Assembly (NCBI GenBank): GCA_046350735.1
Contig: JAXLZU010000001.1
Span: 140,530 to 204,529 of the forward strand
Reading direction: 5' to 3'
Origin: Candidatus Saccharimonadota bacterium
GTDB lineage: Bacteria > Patescibacteriota > Saccharimonadia > CAILAD01 > BJGX01
DNA: 64,000 nucleotides
In this document: piece after piece, positions 1 through 10,323 of the stretch
Layout: every line of letters begins with the position of its first letter
Position numbering within the stretch: position 1 is the first letter of the stretch
The notes under the pieces: generated by a model
What the model saw: the letters and a program-made list of their open reading frames with translations, nothing else
The model's database searches: none
Told to the model about the DNA's origin: nothing
Translations under genes and position numbers: made by a program

Positions 1-48
1 CTTGATTGGTATAGAGCTACAAAAGAAGGTCAATCAGTACTGCAAAGA

Positions 49-1533
49 TTGGGCTGGAAAGATGCTATAGATACAAAAGAAGAGATTAAAAGATTTTTAT
101 CCCAGGCAGTTATTATGGCTCATCAAAACAAGATTGAAGTTGGCCATACACAATCGATAAGTTGGGGTCATGAACAATTAGAAAAAAGAATACAAGAAAA
201 GCTAGAGAGTGGTGAATCGGCCACAGTCGAACCTACATTTTTCTCTTTTTTTACTAATCCAGAAATTCTTGTTGAGGTTGCTTTGCAGGCAGAAAAGCTA
301 AAACAATTTTATTTAGCTATAGAGACAGCTTTAAAGACTCAAAAACTTGATCATATAAATGAAGCCAAACAGATTATGTTAGGTTTGCATAAGCATCGTC
401 TTAATGCATTGATTGCAAGCAACTATCGAGATCTTATTATTCTGTTGGAACAATACAAACTAGCCCCAACAATACTAAATACAAAGCAAATTAACCAGTT
501 ACATACACTATTTCCGCATATAAGCAGAACCAATGTTGATGATTTGGATAAAATGGCGCAAATCTATAGTGTAATTGATAAATTTATTACAGGTATCGAC
601 ACAGAAAATAGTTTTGGACAAATAGAAGCCGAGATTGAATATTTAGAGATAGAACTGCAAAAAGACATTGCAGAACAAGATAGTGACATAGATAGTGCTA
701 AGCGACAAGAACTGCCTAACATAACCATTAATGCGAATGAATTAAAACAACTTTTTGAGACTATTTTATTAAAATATAATCTTCTAGATGAATTAAATCG
801 CAACTGGAATGAGGAAGAAAAAAATCAAAAATGGCATGTTGTTGTTAGTCGTCTAAAAGAAAACTTGTCGGTCTATGCAGAGAAGGGAATTATTTGGATA
901 CCCAAAGATTTTAATCGTAACCTTAATCAAAAAAAACCGGTAGGTGTTTTACCTCTGATAGACCATGAAATTACACATGTTCTGCAACATAAGAATGGTG
1001 CTGCTCTAGGGATTGGATTACTAGAGGTAGACCGGGCAGCTCGCTCTAGTATATGGTTTGAGGTAGGTGCTACCGAGCAAGAGAATCATTCATTCTTAGA
1101 ATACTTCAATATTCATAGGGGCCCAAATCTACATTACATAAAAGCTATGCAGACCCAGCTAAGAGGCGGGGGTATCTCTGATTGTATATTTACATTTTAT
1201 AAGAGCTTAATAGAATCGGGTGATATTGTAGACAAAAAAGCCGCAATAAGCTTCGCTACAGAAAGAACTTTACGCCTGTTTCGTAATGGTATTGAATACA
1301 CCCCAGGAAACGGTTATATCACGAATACCGAGCCCATAGAGTTTGCTTGGCAAGAATTGGTGTATAGACAGTTACCGGTTAACCTGCATTGGTTGTACTT
1401 TGTTGGCCGAATAAATTTTCTAGACTTAGCTGAACTACACCGAATTGGATGGCTAAATCGAGATGAAATATTTATTCCAGAGCTTATGCCAGATAAGATA
1501 GCATTGACCGAATTAAGAAAGCTCAAAAAATAG
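49..1533 (+). CDS. Uncharacterised HExxH-motif (zincin-like) protein, paralog A of the tandem pair
   Basis: 494-aa ORF. Contains 'LPLIDHEITHVLQH' (an HExxH motif) and shares several conserved blocks with the next ORF: 'GVLPLIDHExTHVLQH', 'ARSSxWFE', and a C-terminal 'YFVGRxNxxxLAxLHxIGWxN'. No recognisable signal peptide. The family is unknown to me. Confidence 0.6.
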   Translation: MGWKDAIDTKEEIKRFLSQAVIMAHQNKIEVGHTQSISWGHEQLEKRIQEKLESGESATVEPTFFSFFTNPEILVEVALQAEKLKQFYLAIETALKTQKLDHINEAKQIMLGLHKHRLNALIASNYRDLIILLEQYKLAPTILNTKQINQLHTLFPHISRTNVDDLDKMAQIYSVIDKFITGIDTENSFGQIEAEIEYLEIELQKDIAEQDSDIDSAKRQELPNITINANELKQLFETILLKYNLLDELNRNWNEEEKNQKWHVVVSRLKENLSVYAEKGIIWIPKDFNRNLNQKKPVGVLPLIDHEITHVLQHKNGAALGIGLLEVDRAARSSIWFEVGATEQENHSFLEYFNIHRGPNLHYIKAMQTQLRGGGISDCIFTFYKSLIESGDIVDKKAAISFATERTLRLFRNGIEYTPGNGYITNTEPIEFAWQELVYRQLPVNLHWLYFVGRINFLDLAELHRIGWLNRDEIFIPELMPDKIALTELRKLKK

Positions 1534-1582
1534 TCAATTAACTATATAAATGACTATATAATTATAAAGAAGGAATAATTTT

Positions 1583-3397
1583 ATGCCCGAGAAAAATCTA
1601 TCATTATATCCAGAAAGACCCAATTCAGAAAGCGATAGTTTCAGGCAGACTATTGAGATTTTAAGCAATCCTGCCGAAGTTGAATTGTCCCCAGAGCAGA
1701 AAGCTGAGGTAACAGCATTTGAACATTCGCTAGCGAATTGTAATATTGACGTGAGTAATGAAGTTAATAAACCTCCATATACTATTGGTGAAATATTTAA
1801 GATTGATATTCAAGAGGAAAAGCTTTGTCTTGACTATTTTTTGAATGCATTTGGCACGAGTGTAGATAACCCTACAGATAGAGAAGCTATGAAGCAAGCT
1901 TTGATTCGATTTCAATCGCTTCCCAAAGAAGAACGACTAACTCTTGAAGCGATCGAGAATTCTAAGAATTATGCTCGTGATATGCTTGAGGATAATCTTA
2001 GAGACCTTCTTGCTATTGGTGCCTATGATCGAAGGAAAGAGCCAACCTATTTACGTATTCTTGATGATCCAAATCTTTTAATTGAGAAAGTTGATGCTGC
2101 CCGTCAATTAAAGCATTACTATAAAGCAGTAGAGAGAGATATGGGTATCTTAAGTTCAGGTGATCCCGTCGATACAGCGAAACTACTGATGATACAACTG
2201 CACAAAGAGCGTATTAATACTATTATAGCTGCTAGCTATAGGGATGCTATCACCTTAATAGAACAGGATAGAGTTGGTAATGTATTAAGTGACGAACAAC
2301 GTGCTATTCTATTTCGTTCATTGCCTGGTTTGGCAGCTCGCAACAAAGATGCTTTACTCGATGATGCAGAGTTGGTTGATAAAGAAAGATTTGCACGCAC
2401 TTTGGCACGTATTGACCATTTTATTAATGGAGTCGACAAAAGCCGTGGATATTCACCAATTTCACAAGCGTTATTGGATTTACGGGATCGCTATGAAGCT
2501 GAGCAGATTGAGGGGCAATACGAATATGAAGATGTTGATCCAGAATTATTGAAGAAAACAAAAGTTAATGCCGAGCAGCTTGCAGAAATGTTTCAACAGG
2601 TATTACGCGAGTATGGTCTATTAAGCTCAAGTACCGATTATGATCCAAAATCTAGCGTGAGAGCAGAGGATGATTTGTGGCGGGTTATTATTGACCCACG
2701 GGCGAGTAGAAAATCGCTTGCTATTAACAATCTCAAAGGCACAGTTATGTTACCCCAAAAGTTTAGCAGAACATTAAATCAAACAATGCCGGCAGGCGTT
2801 TTACCTCTAATTGATCATGAAACTACTCACGTATTGCAACATGAGAATGCCGACAGGCTTGGTTTAGAGCTATTTAATGGACCAGGTAGTGCACGCTCTT
2901 CTTTGTGGTTCGAGGCGGGTGGTGTCGTTTGGGAAACGGTAGCTCAAGAGAAGCTTTTTGGACAGCAGCGATCAACCAATTTTACTTATCTTGCTGCTGT
3001 AGAGAAAAGACTAGAGGGTGGAAGTATGACAGATTGTGCATTTGAGTTCTTAAAAGAAAAGATGCGAACCAACCCTGATAAAGACCCACAACAAATGGTA
3101 TCTACAGCAGTTGGTAGCGCACTTAGGCTTTTTAATAATGGTGGAGAATGGACGGTCGGTACGAGCTATTGTAGCAATACAGGACCACTAGAATATGCAG
3201 AACAAAAGATACTAGCAGATTCTGTGCCAGAAAATATGCGATATCTGTTTTATGTTGGAAGAGTTAACTTAGAAGTATTGGCGCAGTTACATAAAATAGG
3301 CTGGTTTAATAAAGAGGATTTCATTGTCCCTGAAAGACTACCTTCAACAATCGTAGAGCCATATGTAAAGTCTGAAATCCTATCTGTAGAAGAGTAA
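1583..3397 (+). CDS. Uncharacterised HExxH-motif (zincin-like) protein, paralog B (longer N-terminus)
   Basis: 604-aa ORF. 'LPLIDHETTHVLQHEN' HExxH motif. Clear paralogy to the 49..1533 product over the C-terminal ~350 aa. RBS-like 'aaggaa' upstream of the ATG. Confidence 0.6.
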   Translation: MPEKNLSLYPERPNSESDSFRQTIEILSNPAEVELSPEQKAEVTAFEHSLANCNIDVSNEVNKPPYTIGEIFKIDIQEEKLCLDYFLNAFGTSVDNPTDREAMKQALIRFQSLPKEERLTLEAIENSKNYARDMLEDNLRDLLAIGAYDRRKEPTYLRILDDPNLLIEKVDAARQLKHYYKAVERDMGILSSGDPVDTAKLLMIQLHKERINTIIAASYRDAITLIEQDRVGNVLSDEQRAILFRSLPGLAARNKDALLDDAELVDKERFARTLARIDHFINGVDKSRGYSPISQALLDLRDRYEAEQIEGQYEYEDVDPELLKKTKVNAEQLAEMFQQVLREYGLLSSSTDYDPKSSVRAEDDLWRVIIDPRASRKSLAINNLKGTVMLPQKFSRTLNQTMPAGVLPLIDHETTHVLQHENADRLGLELFNGPGSARSSLWFEAGGVVWETVAQEKLFGQQRSTNFTYLAAVEKRLEGGSMTDCAFEFLKEKMRTNPDKDPQQMVSTAVGSALRLFNNGGEWTVGTSYCSNTGPLEYAEQKILADSVPENMRYLFYVGRVNLEVLAQLHKIGWFNKEDFIVPERLPSTIVEPYVKSEILSVEE

Positions 3398-3404
3398 AAA
3401 AGCA

Positions 3405-3433
3405 TTTACAATTAGGAAAAAATTTAGTATAAT
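3405..3433 (+). promoter_or_regulatory. Near-consensus sigma70-type promoter (TTTACA, 17-bp spacer, TATAAT) ahead of the ATP-grasp gene trio
   Basis: 'tttaca' at 3405-3410 and 'tataat' at 3428-3433, with a 17-bp spacer. RBS 'aggaag' then ATG at 3461. Confidence 0.5.
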
Positions 3434-3460
3434 CTGTTGATTAGTTAGGAAGCAAAGATA

Positions 3461-4372
3461 ATGAAAAAGATTCTCGTATTCTATAGTTACAAAAAGCACA
3501 AAACCGGCTACTACAAAACACTTTTTTCTCGACTTAATGAGGGCGCAAAAAAACACAACCTCAAACTTTTTCAAGGTTCGGTAAAAGATCTGCGCATAAG
3601 CATCCAGAATAATAAATTGTGTGTTGTAGAGGCTTTAACGAACCAACCACTCAATAATTTTGATGTGGTTTACTTTGAGTTATGGTCGAAAGCTCCACAA
3701 CATGCTCTGGCAGCTGCCATTTTTTTACACAATACTAATACACCATTTATTACTAGCGAGATGACTCAAGTAATGTCGACATCTAAGTTAGGCGAGATGG
3801 CTAAAATGACTTCAGTTAATTTACCTATGCCCGATAGTTATTTTGCTAACAATAAAGACTTACTAGAATTCAGCAAGCAAAAAGATGCCTTTATTTCATT
3901 TCCGATGATAGTAAAGAATACCGAGACTTTCGGTGGCCAAGATAATTACTTAGTAAAAAATAGTGTAGAGCTAGAGAAAATTCTTGCTCAACATCCAAAA
4001 GTTCAATTTGTCTTACAGCAATTTATTCCAAACGATTGTGATTATCGGGTTTTGGTTTTTGGCGGCAAGATACGTGCAATTATGCGACGTACAGCAGTAA
4101 AAGGTAGTCACCTCAATAACACTTCAGCAGGTGGTGAAGGAGAAATGTTACCACTTAATTCGCTCTCTCCAGAAATTTGTACTGATGTGTTGATGGCAGC
4201 AAAGGTAACTAACCGAGAAGAACTGGCTGGCGTGGACGTAGTAATTGATAAAAATACTAACAAGCACTATATACTGGAAGTAAATCAAGCACCTGGTATC
4301 GAATTGGGAGAACATACCGAAGTAAAGATGGACGCATTCTTTTCGTATATAAAGGAGCTGGCAAACCAATGA
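3461..4372 (+). CDS. RimK-like ATP-grasp ligase (alpha-L-glutamate-ligase-like), paralog 1
   Basis: 303 aa. ATP-grasp signature blocks including '[35 protein letters not shown]' (compare RimK '[10 protein letters not shown]') and 'YILEVNQAPG'. Stop overlaps the next start (ATGA). Confidence 0.7.
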   Translation: MKKILVFYSYKKHKTGYYKTLFSRLNEGAKKHNLKLFQGSVKDLRISIQNNKLCVVEALTNQPLNNFDVVYFELWSKAPQHALAAAIFLHNTNTPFITSEMTQVMSTSKLGEMAKMTSVNLPMPDSYFANNKDLLEFSKQKDAFISFPMIVKNTETFGGQDNYLVKNSVELEKILAQHPKVQFVLQQFIPNDCDYRVLVFGGKIRAIMRRTAVKGSHLNNTSAGGEGEMLPLNSLSPEICTDVLMAAKVTNREELAGVDVVIDKNTNKHYILEVNQAPGIELGEHTEVKMDAFFSYIKELANQ

Positions 4373-5754
4373 AAAAACCAAGTATTTTATTTATTTTTGC
4401 TAATCGCGGAAGTGAAACAAGCACTAGATTTGGTGGCTTTACAAAACGATTAAAAAAATATGATGCGTTAGGGTATACAAGCAAAGCTGATGTTGCTGCA
4501 CTCGAAGATTTTCTGTATGTAATTGATAATGGTGAAGCGAAGATTATTGATATGTTTACTGGCAAAGATATTGCGAGCTATAGCTTTGTGTACTTTAAGG
4601 GTTGGGAGAGTATGTCCGATAGAGCCGCAGCAGCAGCCATCTATCTTCAAGTACACGGCATACCTTTTATTGACACAACTGTAGCGCAAAAAGGAAATCC
4701 TAATAAATTAGTTTCTCATTTTCGTTTGTGGCAAAATTTATTGCCGGTTGCCAAAACACTGTATACAAGCTCTACCCATGCAGAGGCTGCGTTAGATAAA
4801 AAGATTCTCCAATATCCTATTGTTATTAAATCTACAGTTGGGCAAAAAGGAAAAGACAACTATTTAGCCAAAACAAAAAAAGAGGCTCTTAAGATTATCA
4901 AGACATATCCAGACACCGATTTTATGATGCAAGAGTTTATTCATAATGAGGGCGACTGGCGTATACAGGTATATGGTAATAAGGCTGCACTTGCCCTAAA
5001 ACGTATAGGTAAAACCGGCTCTCATTTAAACAATACTTCGGCCGGTGGCAAAACAGTTATGACAGAGCTTAGCAACGTTGGCCCATTACTTTTAGAGATG
5101 GCTGAAGATGCCGCCCAGGTAATGGACTTGCAGGTAGCAGGTGTGGATCTTATTGAAGATAAAAAGACAAAAAAAATCTACGTGCTAGAGGTTAATCAGG
5201 GATCGCAAATTATTACTGGGGCACCAGAATTTGTTAAGGCCAATATACCTGCATTCGATAATTTTCTAAAACGCGCAATAAAACGTCGTTTTACCCGTAA
5301 GAATAAATTTTACAATCTGCCAAAAACTATTATCGGACGACATGAGCTTGTAAGTTTACCAGAATTTGGTGTGACCGATATTACTGCTAAGACAGACACT
5401 GGTGCTTATCATAGTGCTCTGCATGCCGAGAATATTATTATCAAGAAAGAACGAGGCAAAGAGGTTTTGCACTTTAGTATACCTGTCTTTGCAAATGGAC
5501 ATCAGAAAACTGCAGTTATGGTTGATTGTACAAGTTTGGATTTTTCTGTAGTAGATATAAAAAACTCTTTCGGAGGATGGCAAAAACGTTATAAGATAAA
5601 TACAGTGGTTGAAATCGGTGGCAAAAAATACGATACTCAACTAACACTAACAAACCGCGAAAGCCAAAAAATCCCAATGTTGCTTGGTAGAAAGTTGCTT
5701 AGAGGAAACTTCTTGGTTAACGTTGAACTCTCACGAAAGGAAGTTGAAATATGA
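4369..5754 (+). CDS. RimK-like ATP-grasp ligase fused to a C-terminal DUF785 retropepsin-like ('putative ATP-dependent zinc protease') domain
   Basis: 461 aa. The N-terminal ~300 aa is paralogous to the previous ORF ('[34 protein letters not shown]', 'YVLEVNQGS'). The C-terminal ~150 aa has '[17 protein letters not shown]' (a D-T-G-A aspartic-protease-like motif), typical of the RimK-associated DUF785 domain. Confidence 0.65.
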
Positions 5755-6656
5755 AAATTGTTATTTTATCACGAGGCCCGTCGAACTATTCAACTAGACG
5801 TTTGGTAGAGGCAGCTATTGCACGTGGTCATAGTGCCAAAGTAGTTAATCATGCTAACTGTTATGTCGATATAGAACGAAATAAACCAGCAATTTTATAT
5901 AATGGCTATTCTTTAGAGAATGTAGATATTGTTATACCGCGTATTGGCCAGTCAATTACTAGCTACGGTTCTGCTGTTGTACGTCAGTTTGAGATGATGC
6001 GTGTTTATACTCCGGTTAGCTCTCTCGCCCTGGTTAGAAGCCGAGATAAGCTACGTAGCATGCAACTTCTTGCTCGCTCGGGAGTTGGTATTCCTAAGAC
6101 AGTGTTTGCACGACAAGCCAAAGAAACCGATGAGCTAATAGAAAAAGCTGGTGGTGCACCGGTGGTAATTAAGCTACTCGAAGGTACACATGGTATTGGT
6201 GTAGTCTTGGCCGAGACTCGTAAAGCGGCTAAGTCGGTTATTGAAGCATTTTATGGACTTGGTGCTAACATTCTTATTCAAGAATTTATTGAAGAAGCGC
6301 ACGGTGCAGATATTCGCGTAATTGTAGTAGGCGAGCGTGTGGTAGGTGCTATGATGCGCAAGGGTCCAGAAGATGAGTTTCGGTCCAACTTGCATCGTGG
6401 TGGCGAATCGTTGCCTGTTGAGCTAACCAAAAAAGAAGCTAATATTGCAATTAAGGCCGCCCGTACTCTTGGCCTGCCAATTGCTGGTGTAGATATCATC
6501 CGCTCTAAACGCGGCCCATTGGTATTAGAAGTTAATTCTAGCCCAGGACTAGGTGGTATCGAGATGCAAACCAAAGAAGATATCGCAGGTGAGATAATCG
6601 ACTACGTGGTTTCTAAGGCTTCAGGCAAACGCCGTAAAGATAGAATCGGTGCTTAA
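5751..6656 (+). CDS. rimK: Ribosomal protein S6 glutamate ligase RimK (canonical ATP-grasp)
   Basis: 301 aa. '[22 protein letters not shown]...', '[18 protein letters not shown]', '[15 protein letters not shown]'. Translationally coupled to the upstream gene (ATGA overlap). Confidence 0.85.
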
Positions 6657-6752: not shown

Positions 6753-6829
6753 GGGTCCGTAGCTCAGTTGGTTAGAGCACCTGCCTTTTAAGCAGGGTGT
6801 CGTGAGTTCGAGTCTCACCGGACCCACCA
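6753..6829 (+). tRNA. tRNA-Lys (anticodon UUU)
   Basis: Hand-folded cloverleaf. Acceptor gggtccg/cggaccc (7 bp), D-arm 'agctcagttggttagagc', anticodon stem ctgcc/ggcag with loop 'cTTTTaa', T-arm gtgag-ttcgagt-ctcac, and a genomically encoded CCA. Confidence 0.85.
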
Positions 6830-7075: not shown

Positions 7076-8566
7076 ATGAGACGCAATGTACAGATTATTC
7101 TATTTGCACTAGCCTTTATGGTTGGTATTATTTTGGCTGCCAACTTTTGGTTTCCTTTTTCTTGGTGGCTAGCGCTAGCTGGTTTGGTCTTTCTGTTAAC
7201 TGTGTTTATATTTAAATCAAAACTAGGATACATTGTAATTGTTGCTGCAGCTATGCTTTTAGGTATTGCTCGTTACGAGTTTTGGTATACTCATCAACCT
7301 GTCTCAGTAGACACATTAGCTGATCAGAAGGTAACAATTACCGGTGTCGTCAGTGGTGAGCCAAGTTGGGATCAATACCATATGTATGTCTTCTATATTG
7401 ATAATGTGCATGTTAACGGAGTAGGTTATGCGGGTCTTGTTCGAGCAAAAAGTGTTAGCGGACAAGTGCACGAAGGTCAGATGGTGCAAGTGCGTGGCAA
7501 AGCAAGATCGAGTCTGGGCAAAGCTAGCATACTAATAAGTTATGCTGATGTTGAGATAATCTCACGAGCTCAGCCGTTTATTGTTGTTGCAAAAGAAACT
7601 TTTCTGAATGGATTAAATACTACATTAAGTCACGATTCAGCGGCTTTTGTGGCTGGTACACTTATTGGCTCTCGCTCGGCACTGCCAAAAGCACTACAAG
7701 ATTTACTATCGGCAGTAGGTCTTTCTCATGTTATAGCTGTTTCTGGCTATAATCTAACCATTCTAGTTGCTCTGCTTGCTATGCTGCTTGGCAAGAAATG
7801 GCGATGGGGTGGCCTAATTATTTCACTTTGGGTAATTTTGGGGTTTGTGATAATCTCTGGTGCAAATGCCGCAATTGTAAGAGCAGGAATAATGAGCACA
7901 ATATTTTTGGTGGCCAACTTTTATGGTAAGCGTGTTAACTTGGTGGTATGTATGGCGTTAACGGGTCTGGGAATGGTAGTAATAAATCCTGCCAATCTAC
8001 TAAGCGATATTGGCTGGCAACTTTCTTTTGCTTCACTTTTTGGTATTGCTACCCTTGGGCCAAAGATTGGCCGACTTTTGCCAAAACGCCCTGCCTGGCT
8101 GAATGAGATTTTGTCGGTAACTCTATCAGCTCAGTTAGCTACTGCCGGTATTATTGCGTATAATTTTGGCACTCTTAGCCTGATTGCACCAATAGTAAAT
8201 TGTATTGTAATGCCATTGGTTCCGATAATAATGGCTTATGGAGCGCTAGTGGCGTTCTTTGGAATGATCTTACCAAATTTAGGTGGAATTATTGCCCGTC
8301 CATTAGATGCTTCAGTGGTAATACTATTTGATTTTCTAAAATTTATGCAGCATTTTAAATGGGCAAGCGTGCAAATATCGTCTCTGAGTATTGTGGTGGT
8401 TTGCTTGTATTATGCCGTATTATCTTTTTGGGTAATTATGGCCCGCAAAACAGATTCGAAAGATTTACCAACAGATATAGATCGTGCTACAATAACCAAT
8501 ATTGTTGACTCAGCAAATAAGCCAGTATTTTCTAAAAAAGGAGCACAAAATGTCAGGCCACAGTAA
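7076..8566 (+). CDS. comEC: ComEC/Rec2-family DNA internalisation channel protein
   Basis: 496 aa, polytopic. 'LSAVGLSHVIAVSGYNLTILVALL' matches the ComEC competence-domain motif. Confidence 0.75.
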   Translation: MRRNVQIILFALAFMVGIILAANFWFPFSWWLALAGLVFLLTVFIFKSKLGYIVIVAAAMLLGIARYEFWYTHQPVSVDTLADQKVTITGVVSGEPSWDQYHMYVFYIDNVHVNGVGYAGLVRAKSVSGQVHEGQMVQVRGKARSSLGKASILISYADVEIISRAQPFIVVAKETFLNGLNTTLSHDSAAFVAGTLIGSRSALPKALQDLLSAVGLSHVIAVSGYNLTILVALLAMLLGKKWRWGGLIISLWVILGFVIISGANAAIVRAGIMSTIFLVANFYGKRVNLVVCMALTGLGMVVINPANLLSDIGWQLSFASLFGIATLGPKIGRLLPKRPAWLNEILSVTLSAQLATAGIIAYNFGTLSLIAPIVNCIVMPLVPIIMAYGALVAFFGMILPNLGGIIARPLDASVVILFDFLKFMQHFKWASVQISSLSIVVVCLYYAVLSFWVIMARKTDSKDLPTDIDRATITNIVDSANKPVFSKKGAQNVRPQ

Positions 8567-9287
8567 ATGGGCAAGTATTAAACATAAAAAAGGCGCCGCC
8601 GATGCTAAGCGCGGTAAAATCTTTACCAAATTGGGTAACGAAATTGCTGTAGCTGCGCGCGAAGGTGCTGATCCTGCAATGAATTTCAAGCTTAGATTGG
8701 CTGTAGCTAAGGCCAAACAGGCCAATATGCCAGCTGCTAACATTGAGCGATCGATTGCTCGAGGGGCTGGTACTGGTGAAGGTGCCGCACTCGAAGAACT
8801 AACATATGAAGGTTATGGCCCTGCAGGAGTTGCTATTATGGCTAAGGCATTAACTGATAATCGCAATCGCACAGCCTCTGATGTAAAATCATCTTTTTCT
8901 AAATTTGGTGGTAATTTGGGCGGGCCAGGATCGGTCGCTTATATGTTTGATCAAAAAGGTGTTATTCTAGCAAAGCCAGATGTAGATAAAGATGATATTG
9001 CACTTAAGGCAATAGAGCTAGGTGCTGATGATATAGATGATAGCGGCCAACAAGTAATTGTGTACACTGCAGCCGGAGAGCTAGAGAAGATTCGTGATGA
9101 ACTCGGCCCAGACAATGTAGATACTGCCGAAGTAAAGTTGATTCCCAACCAATCTGTGTTGGTCGAGGACGAGGCTAAAGCCCGGACAATTATGAAGCTT
9201 ATGGATGCACTAGACGATCTAGATGATGTAGTAGAGGTAACTGCCAACTTTGATATTCCCGAAGAGATTTTAGAAAAGCTGGAATAA
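8550..9287 (+). CDS. yebC: YebC/PmpR-family transcriptional regulator
   Basis: Start chosen at 'MSGHSKWASIKHKKG' (RBS 'aaaggag' 8 nt upstream). The track ORF begins at 8502 and overlaps comEC. 'DNRNRTASDVKSSFSKFGGNLG' is characteristic of YebC. Confidence 0.85.
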   Translation: MSGHSKWASIKHKKGAADAKRGKIFTKLGNEIAVAAREGADPAMNFKLRLAVAKAKQANMPAANIERSIARGAGTGEGAALEELTYEGYGPAGVAIMAKALTDNRNRTASDVKSSFSKFGGNLGGPGSVAYMFDQKGVILAKPDVDKDDIALKAIELGADDIDDSGQQVIVYTAAGELEKIRDELGPDNVDTAEVKLIPNQSVLVEDEAKARTIMKLMDALDDLDDVVEVTANFDIPEEILEKLE

Positions 9288-9761
9288 ATGAAGATCTTAG
9301 GTATCGACCCTGGTACTGCCACAACCGGTTTTGGTGTTATTACAAAAGAACAGGGTAAGTTGTCTGCTATAGACTACGGTGTAATAAGCACTAGCAAACG
9401 GCTAGATATGCATTTACGCCTTAACATTATCTTCCAAGACTTAACCGATTTGATACACCATCATAAGCCAAATATTATTGCGGTAGAAAAGCTCTACTTC
9501 GTAAAAAACATCACTACAGGTATATCGGTAGGGCAAGCCAGGGGAGTAGTGTTGCTAACTGCTGCACGGGCCGATCTTACATTACTCGAATTTACGCCAC
9601 TACAAGTTAAGCAGGCAGTAACAGGGTATGGGCAGGCCAACAAAAAACAAATTCAAGAAATGGTAACAAAGATACTAAAGCTTCCTTCTCTTCCGCAACC
9701 AGATGATGCTGCTGATGCTCTGGCAATAGCTATTTGTGCCAGCTCGCAAACACGCATATAA
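9288..9761 (+). CDS. ruvC: Holliday junction resolvase RuvC
   Basis: 'MKILGIDPGTATTGFGVI'; 157 aa. Confidence 0.9.
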   Translation: MKILGIDPGTATTGFGVITKEQGKLSAIDYGVISTSKRLDMHLRLNIIFQDLTDLIHHHKPNIIAVEKLYFVKNITTGISVGQARGVVLLTAARADLTLLEFTPLQVKQAVTGYGQANKKQIQEMVTKILKLPSLPQPDDAADALAIAICASSQTRI

Positions 9762-9768
9762 TACAGAT

Positions 9769-10323
9769 ATGATTGCGAAAATAAGTGGAACAGTTAGTGA
9801 AAAACTAGTTACGAGTGTTATTGTAGATGTTATGGGAGTTGGTTATGAAGTTTTCTTAACTCCACGATCCTTCGATACAATTTTGCCTGGCGAGAAGGCC
9901 AATCTCTACATTGCTGAGCAAATAAAAGAAGATGAACATACATTGTATGGTTTTATTCATTTAGACGAGAGACAAATGTATTTTCAGCTTAATTCTGTTA
10001 GTGGCGTAGGACCAAAGGCAGCCATGGCAATACTTTCTCATCATCAAGTAGATGATATACAAGATGGTATTATGACTGACAATATAACTATATTTAGTAA
10101 TGTCTCTGGTATTGGCAAAAAAACTGCCCAAAGAATTATTTTAGAACTAAAGGGCAAATTGGTAGAAGCGCCAGAGAAGAAAGCATCTCCAGACGATCCA
10201 GCATATCTTGCGCTTCTTAGTTTGGGTTATAGTGCAAAAGATGCTGCTACGGCACTACAGAATGTTGAGACAAATTTAGAAACAAATGAGAGAGTAAAAC
10301 AAGCCCTAAAAGGGGTGAAATAA
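9769..10323 (+). CDS. ruvA: Holliday junction branch-migration protein RuvA
   Basis: 'MIAKISGTV...' is the typical RuvA N-terminus. The track ORF starts at 9736 and the true start is ambiguous. Has an HhH region ('NSVSGVGPKAAMAIL'). Confidence 0.85.
   Translation: MIAKISGTVSEKLVTSVIVDVMGVGYEVFLTPRSFDTILPGEKANLYIAEQIKEDEHTLYGFIHLDERQMYFQLNSVSGVGPKAAMAILSHHQVDDIQDGIMTDNITIFSNVSGIGKKTAQRIILELKGKLVEAPEKKASPDDPAYLALLSLGYSAKDAATALQNVETNLETNERVKQALKGVK

Follow-up and report, generated by a model that had tools for sequence, protein, structure and literature searches.

In Pseudomonas and E. coli, the RimK-RimB (RimABK) system for the glutamylation of ribosomal protein S6 pairs an ATP-grasp ligase with a Glu-specific protease (PMC11957791, PMC7343187). 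RimB is an endopeptidase that trims the tails made by RimK on S6, and it stimulates the synthesis of poly-alpha-glutamate by RimK (PMC11957791). A functionally analogous division of labour is found in eukaryotes, where ATP-grasp ligases of the TTL/TTLL type write acidic C-terminal tails and the CCP (M14) deglutamylases erase them; another metallopeptidase, the human tubulin-trimming enzyme MATCAP, likewise trims acidic C-terminal tails written by TTL/TTLL ligases. A third described system, rloABC of P. aeruginosa, consists of a retropepsin, a 7TM inactive transglutaminase and an ATP-grasp protein, which act in one pathway and affect hypo-osmotic tolerance and cell shape (PMC12239564). Here we describe an operon from a metagenome-assembled genome (MAG) of Candidatus Saccharibacteria (Candidate Phyla Radiation), located at the start of a stretch of 64,000 nucleotides (contig JAXLZU010000001.1, positions 140,530 to 204,529), which was analysed as a whole and is called the window below. 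The operon is a system of the RimK/RimB (and Rlo) kind that is set apart by an unannotated family of MATCAP-like peptidases. With a probability of roughly 55%, in our estimate, it constitutes a chromosomal module that adds glutamate-type peptide tails or polymers at the expense of ATP and trims them by proteolysis.

The operon comprises six genes, in the order TM (a small membrane protein), HExxH-1, HExxH-2, G1, G2-RimB and RimK, and is flanked by dnaJ on one side and by a tRNA-Lys gene, followed by comEC, yebC and ruvC, on the other. The window coordinates of the operon and of the tRNA gene refer to features on the forward (+) strand. Five co-oriented open reading frames (ORFs) are visible at the start of the window (49-1533, 1583-3397, 3461-4372, 4369-5754 and 5751-6656), and on their basis a preliminary description of this DNA had proposed a five-gene operon. 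Those five stand, and a sixth, conserved gene has to be added, which lies just off the window upstream. The length of 604 aa proposed for the second peptidase was correct (HExxH-2, 1583..3397), whereas the 494 aa of the first result from truncation at the edge of the window: the reading frame (frame 1) is already open at the first base, the gene (HExxH-1) begins off-window with its 3' 511 codons at 1..1533, and an identical metagenomic contig carries it in full (L007:2761-4518, where L numbers designate the loci fetched for comparison), encoding a protein of 585 aa. The ligase genes G1 (3461..4372, 303 aa), G2 (4369..5754, 461 aa) and the third one, RimK (5751..6656, 301 aa), are co-oriented and translationally coupled, as had been stated before, the G1/G2 and G2/RimK junctions both being 4-bp ATGA overlaps. 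The near-consensus promoter that had been noticed in the 63-bp spacer between HExxH-2 and G1 was also recovered. It reads TTTACA-17-TATAAT (3405..3433), matches the consensus at 11 out of 12 positions, and is the best such site in 7.2 kb; it is a consensus match only, in a region where the total of promoter-like sites is at chance level (22 versus 21.2 expected from shuffled sequence), and may act as an internal promoter of the ligase genes.

The last gene of the operon encodes a canonical RimK. The protein scored 373.1 bits on the S6--L-glutamate ligase equivalog NF007764 (cutoff 331; residues 1-291 of 300) and matched both constituent domains, Rimk_N (PF18030) and RimK (PF08443); its loop, [10 protein letters not shown], is encoded at 6375-6404. 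G1 and G2 are paralogs of each other (32% identity, 6e-44) and both carry a different loop, [11 protein letters not shown], which in G1 is found at 4103-4135. The two proteins are clearly RimK-like ATP-grasp enzymes (60.8 and 75.5 bits on PF08443 for G1 and G2, respectively, versus a cutoff of 21) and do not reach the cutoff of the rimK_fam model TIGR00768 (71.5 and 101.2 bits versus 143.4). The E-x-N magnesium site is kept in all three ligases (LEVN in G1, 4274-4285). The distinction between two divergent paralogs and one canonical RimK had been made correctly in the preliminary description, which had overlooked a second domain in G2. The ATP-grasp part of this protein extends over residues ~1-315 and is followed by a RimB-like retropepsin (residues ~319-455, nt ~5323-5733), as indicated by a match of 62.5 bits to PF05618 (residues 321-455; gathering score 27). 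The DTGA motif of the retropepsin is intact (residues 343-346, nt 5395-5406), and the domain stays below the RimB equivalog NF052261 (69.5 versus 200 bits). The same fusion of a ligase and a C-terminal retropepsin occurs in at least 342 sequence clusters, the named ones of which belong to the Saccharimonadales and bear generic names only.

The operon thus has a bona fide RimK and a DTGA-containing retropepsin of the RimB family in common with RimABK, and the logic of pairing a ligase with a protease is the same. In contrast to RimABK, it encodes two extra divergent ligases, one or two large metallopeptidases and a membrane protein, it lacks RimA, and its RimB domain forms the C-terminal part of a ligase other than RimK. 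The arrangement also differs from that of the RimBK hybrid (Little et al. 2025, PMC11957791), in which RimB is N-terminal to RimK, whereas in the operon the retropepsin is C-terminal in G2 and RimK is a separate protein. The comparison with the eukaryotic TTL/TTLL ligases and CCP enzymes is a functional analogy only. The ligases of the operon are of the RimK type, with only faint matches to the TTL model PF03133, and the peptidase is a predicted gluzincin instead of an M14 funnelin.

The two HExxH proteins are paralogs, as had been proposed, with 33% identity over 465 aa (E = 5e-90), and both contain the motif GVLPLIDHE(I/T)THVLQH (nt 943-990 and 2795-2842). Inspection of the two N-termini revealed no signal peptide, in line with the earlier statement. 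HExxH-2 is composed of a helical N-terminal region of ~320 aa and a C-terminal catalytic domain. Across 144 aligned, diverse homologs (mean column identity 20%), the only invariant columns were those of H412, E413, H416 and E444 (numbering of HExxH-2). The first three belong to the HExxH motif (HETTH, 2816-2830; HEITH in HExxH-1, 964-978), which is carried by a predicted helix (406-426), while E444 (2912-2914; the putative equivalent in HExxH-1 is the Glu of WFEVG, 1060-1062) is located 28 residues past H416 on a second predicted helix (441-459). This is the residue set expected for a gluzincin, with H412 and H416 as the two His ligands, E413 as the catalytic Glu and E444 as the third-ligand Glu. 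The earlier idea of a zincin-type metallopeptidase with a third ligand thereby gained considerable ground, and judged from these conserved residues and from the fold described below, the HExxH proteins are very probably zinc-binding gluzincin peptidases. The spacing of the motif varies within the family: of 160 family representatives, HExxH is found in 114 and HExxxH, mostly as HEIEGH, in 42. In the HExxxH-type representatives the third Glu is part of an E(G/A)G(A) motif, whereas the window proteins have WFE(A/V)G.

Only this genome has the HExxH gene in two tandem copies, every other locus containing a single one, and the two copies are not equivalent. HExxH-2 displays the near-invariant family motif LEYAEQ (3188-3205), which is also retained in the single copy of L011, whereas HExxH-1 reads IEFAWQ (1336-1353), corresponding to the changes Y538F and E540W. 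Because of the loss of these near-invariant residues, HExxH-1 may be inactive, degenerate or repurposed, even though its HExxH motif and third Glu are kept. The duplication of both components had been taken as a sign of several substrates or chemistries. That argument is weakened, as the duplication of the peptidase is specific to one genome and the first copy has changed. As a separate observation, HExxH-2 ends in -VEE (3389-3394) and thereby in Glu-Glu, as does S6 of E. coli, the RimK substrate. The possibility that it forms a self-substrate signal was considered and rejected: the ending is not conserved among orthologs, and is therefore probably a coincidence.

When 1.84 billion representative sequences were searched exhaustively with an HMM, 533 homologs of the HExxH proteins were found (family representatives at 50% identity), 357 of which scored below 1e-30 and nearly all of which are ~600 aa long. 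Searches of the Protein Data Bank (PDB) with sequence profiles built from 15 and from 144 sequences returned nothing, or spurious coiled-coil matches to the heptad repeat of coronavirus S2. The AlphaFold2 models are confident (full length: pLDDT 82.7, pTM 0.83; catalytic domain: pLDDT 82.6) and have a zincin fold that resembles those of MATCAP, DUF885 and M32, with MATCAP as the nearest solved structure. Sequence identity in the structural alignments is 11-12%. The structural relationship is remote, as Foldseek returned nothing below E = 0.27 against the PDB. A compatible signal was obtained when 79 members were scanned singly. The models matched most frequently were PF08014 (6 members, best 1.3e-6) and the QEGLA model TIGR02421 (6 members, best 1.4e-7), both covering the catalytic core and all below threshold; the best PF08014 member, P0122, reached 26.9 bits, where the gathering score is 27, and P0067 scored 17 bits. 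One member touched Peptidase_M32 (PF02074; 22.3 bits versus a cutoff of 25.1). The DUF1704/QEGLA family, which had been brought up in the preliminary description, therefore provides the top weak matches of the family as a whole, whereas membership of the window proteins themselves was rejected: they show no match to PF08014 at E<=0.1 and have the HExxH instead of the HExxxH spacing.

Together these data define a new family of putative gluzincins, for which there is no Pfam or NCBIfam model and which is a sister to MATCAP/DUF1704 with a DUF885/M32-like architecture. The gluzincin core is shared with MATCAP/TMCP1-2 (KIAA0895L, KIAA0895; PF08014, formerly DUF1704) and with the QEGLA proteins of TIGR02421. 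The combination of HExxxH with an EEG third-ligand motif is a hallmark of MATCAP/TMCP1 (PMC10499314). A quarter of the HExxH family uses this unusual spacing, and the third-ligand Glu motifs of MATCAP (EEG) and of its bacterial counterparts (QEGLA) resemble the E-G/A-G of the family. Moreover, the association of MATCAP with tails written by ATP-grasp ligases resembles the pairing in the operon. The window proteins differ from MATCAP in their length of ~600 aa, with an extra N-terminal helical region of ~320 aa, as compared with the 365 positions of the Pfam model. In overall architecture they resemble the M32 (Taq/Pfu) metallocarboxypeptidases and DUF885 (PF05960), which share a two-lobed helical architecture of ~500-600 aa with HExxH located about two-thirds along the sequence, and from which they differ by the absence of HMM membership and by another genomic context. 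Two irregular members of the comparison may be mentioned. In L008 the HExxH gene is split (7995-8999, 334 aa, and 9030-9848, 272 aa), where a pseudogene, a frameshift or an assembly error are all possible. In L002 a second 610-aa ORF without Pfam match (L002:5584-7416) lies near the stand-alone HExxH homolog P0011; it is apparently unrelated to the family, as it was not matched by the family probes.

The gene order of the operon is well conserved. The arrangement TM-HExxH-G1-G2(RimB)-RimK is found at the same chromosomal position in the Saccharibacteria loci L003, L005, L007-L011, L012 (as a variant) and L014, with G2 and RimB as separate genes in L005. In every case within the Saccharibacteria, translation of the HExxH gene is coupled to that of the TM gene. 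In the operon, the gene (L007:2267-2764) encodes a multi-pass membrane protein of 165 aa and overlaps HExxH-1 by 4 bp. Homologs of ~165-175 aa are encoded at L003:9477-10004, L005:9498-10004, L011:7507-8004 and L012:7533-8033. The protein belongs to no Pfam family and is characterized by a Y-N-L motif that is invariant (NYNLAAM) and by a C-terminal tail rich in Lys and Asp (e.g. DKSDKDDKK).

RimK-like ligases are reportedly linked with peptidase families (Iyer et al. 2009). The distant, ~25% identical members of the HExxH family, which are of the HExxxH type, are located at the end of clusters that include a PF14402 7TM_transglut protein, a fusion of ATPgrasp_ST and retropepsin, and one to four RimK-like ligases (L015, L019, L020, L023, L025-L028, L034, L035, L037 and L039-L042). 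Upon comparison, the ligases of these clusters were rejected as orthologs of G1 and G2, and the association thus recurs independently. The fact that sets of a peptidase, ATP-grasp ligases, a retropepsin and a membrane protein recur with different parts argues for a functional link. In total, about 24 of the 32 informative loci show linkage to ligases, and the linkage is not obligatory in either direction. The check on gene neighbourhood suggested in the preliminary description therefore had a positive outcome: the cluster is syntenic in many relatives, the HExxH motif is conserved, and no assignment to a non-peptidase family emerged. Some related clusters contain further genes. L015 includes a Mur-ligase-like gene (L015:4503-5723; Mur_ligase_M and Mur_ligase_C), L019 a 274-aa protein without Pfam match among four or five ligases (L019:2417-3241), and L050 a 347-aa protein, also without Pfam match, that looks like a fourth ATP-grasp enzyme (L050:5025-6068; IIEVNGRN, LVIQEYMPE).

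A comparison with the close relative L011 revealed a striking mosaic. The proteins DnaJ, TM and YebC are 94% identical between the two genomes and RimK is even 98% identical, whereas the identity drops to 45% for G1, 44% for the ligase part of G2 and 50% for its retropepsin domain; the single HExxH protein of L011 is 47% identical to paralog 1 and 39% to paralog 2. At the nucleotide level, the flanks (dnaJ-TM off the window, and the window from 5608 onward) are ~80-83% identical, whereas the block that contains the HExxH genes, G1 and most of G2 (1..5607) is at most 64% identical or its similarity is undetectable. The edges of this block are sharp: one coincides exactly with the end of the TM gene and the other lies at position 5608 inside G2 (compared region L011:8005-12033). 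In fact, HExxH-2 and G2 are nearer to the much more distant L003/L009 lineage (47%, 48% and 60%). As they diverge between a constant TM and a constant RimK, the peptidase, G1 and G2 behave like a single module that was either swapped or evolves fast, and the pattern suggests cassette exchange or very fast evolution. A bolder reading would see in HExxH-G1-G2 a swappable specificity cassette that writes and erases a lineage-specific, non-ribosomal tail, a 'tail code', on a target protein and diversifies rapidly between near-identical Saccharibacteria. We regard this as rather doubtful. The candidate targets would be ribosomal protein S6 or the co-encoded membrane protein, and the driver would perhaps be a conflict with the host or with phages.

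How the components could cooperate can be outlined on the basis of their homologs. The three ATP-grasp ligases would attach amino acids to a terminal carboxylate at the expense of ATP; the residue added would most likely be alpha-linked glutamate, and the acceptor could be the C-terminus of a protein such as S6 or a growing free peptide. The ligation would be shared between RimK and the two divergent RimK-type paralogs with their different substrate loop. The retropepsin fused to G2 would cut within the acidic tail, like RimB, whereas the HExxH gluzincins, being MATCAP/M32-like, would trim it from the C-terminal end. The small membrane protein, whose gene is coupled in translation to that of the first peptidase, probably acts as tether or partner of the peptidase at the membrane. 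The proposal that ligases and a trimming peptidase form a candidate system for peptide-tail ligation and trimming had already been made for this locus. It remains a reasonable lead, with the amendment that the trimming side also includes the RimB-type retropepsin. It builds on the observed gene order, coupling and paralogy, the match of RimK to its equivalog, the intact motifs, the H-E-H-E tetrad, the likeness in fold and the recurrent linkage.

Several points weigh against the addition and trimming of tails. The HExxH proteins of the window have no match in Pfam or NCBIfam at E<=0.1, and it is solely from the nearest folds that an exopeptidase mode is predicted. To this the possible inactivity of HExxH-1 has to be added. 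The gene for S6, rpsF, is present neither in the window nor in any fetched locus, and no candidate substrates with an acidic tail were found in the window. Furthermore, there are stand-alone HExxH genes (L001, L002, L013, L016, L022, L029, L038 and L048), and conversely L050 and L051 have the G1-G2-RimK trio in the same position after dnaJ in the absence of TM and HExxH. It follows from the latter two loci that the ligase trio is the core of the system in Saccharibacteria, and TM and HExxH an accessory pair.

The most serious alternative, which we consider possible and distinctly less probable than the modification of tails, is that the module makes and mobilises a free poly-amino acid or oligopeptide instead of a protein tail. 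The ligases would then polymerise glutamate, and possibly other residues, into a cytoplasmic or membrane-associated reserve or osmoprotectant of an auxotrophic episymbiont, comparable to cyanophycin or poly-glutamate, and the retropepsin and HExxH proteins would degrade or size the polymer. Indeed, RimK produces free poly-alpha-L-glutamate, with RimB as stimulating factor (PMC11957791), and M32-like folds typically degrade free peptides. The number of ligases per cluster, up to four or five in L019, L026 and L050, and the domain pairing of cyanophycin synthetase that results from the Mur-ligase-like gene in L015 point in the same direction, as does the lack of an evident protein substrate in the window. 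On the other hand, the RimK of the operon passes the S6-ligase equivalog model, MATCAP as the nearest structure acts on a protein tail, and no genes for the export or storage of a polymer were identified; the indications are all indirect.

A second alternative, unlikely in our view and argued by analogy, is an envelope system like Rlo, in which the ligases would assemble an anionic peptide that is attached to or destined for the TM protein, a lipid or a peptidoglycan precursor, and the peptidases would prevent its toxic over-accumulation, with effects on osmotic tolerance and cell shape. A membrane component, a ligase and a retropepsin form a theme that the operon has in common with RloABC, and the clusters of the distant HExxxH branch hold the components of rloABC proper (PF14402 7TM_transglut, found only there, and the fusion of ATP-grasp and retropepsin). 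In P. aeruginosa, loss of rloB or rloC suppresses the phenotype of a protease-null strain (PMC12239564), and in Photobacterium low salinity induces rimK along with a QEGLA-motif gene and its ATP-grasp neighbour (PMC10308900). The strict coupling of the TM gene to the HExxH gene in the Saccharibacteria would also fit an envelope role. Nevertheless, the TM protein was rejected as a homolog of 7TM_transglut, and thus of RloB (no PF14402 match; hhalign probability 0.1%), and the operon encodes no transglutaminase-like domain. Its enzymes lack signal peptides and its retropepsin is fused to a cytoplasmic ligase, unlike the secreted RloA, whereas Rlo in turn lacks a metallopeptidase. Finally, it is very improbable that the HExxH proteins are general housekeeping oligopeptidases (M3/M32-like) that merely happen to lie beside the rimK locus, as the existence of the stand-alone members and of the trio without HExxH and the promoter-like site between HExxH-2 and G1 could suggest, given that the linkage extends across branches of ~25% identity with different ligase families and gene orders, that HExxH, G1 and G2 vary jointly, as one block, when close relatives are compared and that the intergenic distances are tight or overlapping.

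Some other possibilities and neighbouring features complete the description of the locus. A RiPP- or graspetide-like system, in which a precursor peptide would follow rimK, was considered and rejected, as the 420-bp gap between rimK and comEC contains a gene for tRNA-Lys (anticodon UUU; 6753-6829; Rfam tRNA 75.8 bits, with which ARAGORN agrees) and implausible small ORFs only. A known anti-phage defence system was likewise rejected, as none of the six operon proteins matched a PADLOC model. No more members of the HExxH family and no more ligases were found elsewhere in the window. Further downstream, the yebC-like ORF, with its listed TTG start at 8502, shares 65 nt (8502-8566) with the end of comEC, and the true start is probably an internal ATG (M17, about nt 8550).

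With the present analysis a family of ~600-aa peptidases that is represented in neither Pfam nor NCBIfam gains a fold, an active site and a genomic context. Moreover, peptidases of the MATCAP type, which have only recently been recognised as erasers of the tubulin code, become connected to ATP-grasp tail ligases in bacteria. This connection supports an origin of the logic of writer and eraser in bacterial operons. If a swappable cassette for a lineage-specific tail indeed exists, the combination of a RimK/TTL-type ligase with a MATCAP-type gluzincin would be a prokaryotic prototype of the eukaryotic cycle of tubulin tyrosination/glutamylation and MATCAP. The mosaic divergence of the peptidase/ligase block between close relatives offers a natural entry to the determinants of specificity. 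For the organisms themselves, the economy of the genome is telling: genomes of the Candidate Phyla Radiation measure ~0.8 Mb, and about 7 kb is spent here on an expanded RimK/RimB system, which implies that an important and unexplored post-translational or polymer chemistry exists in these episymbionts.

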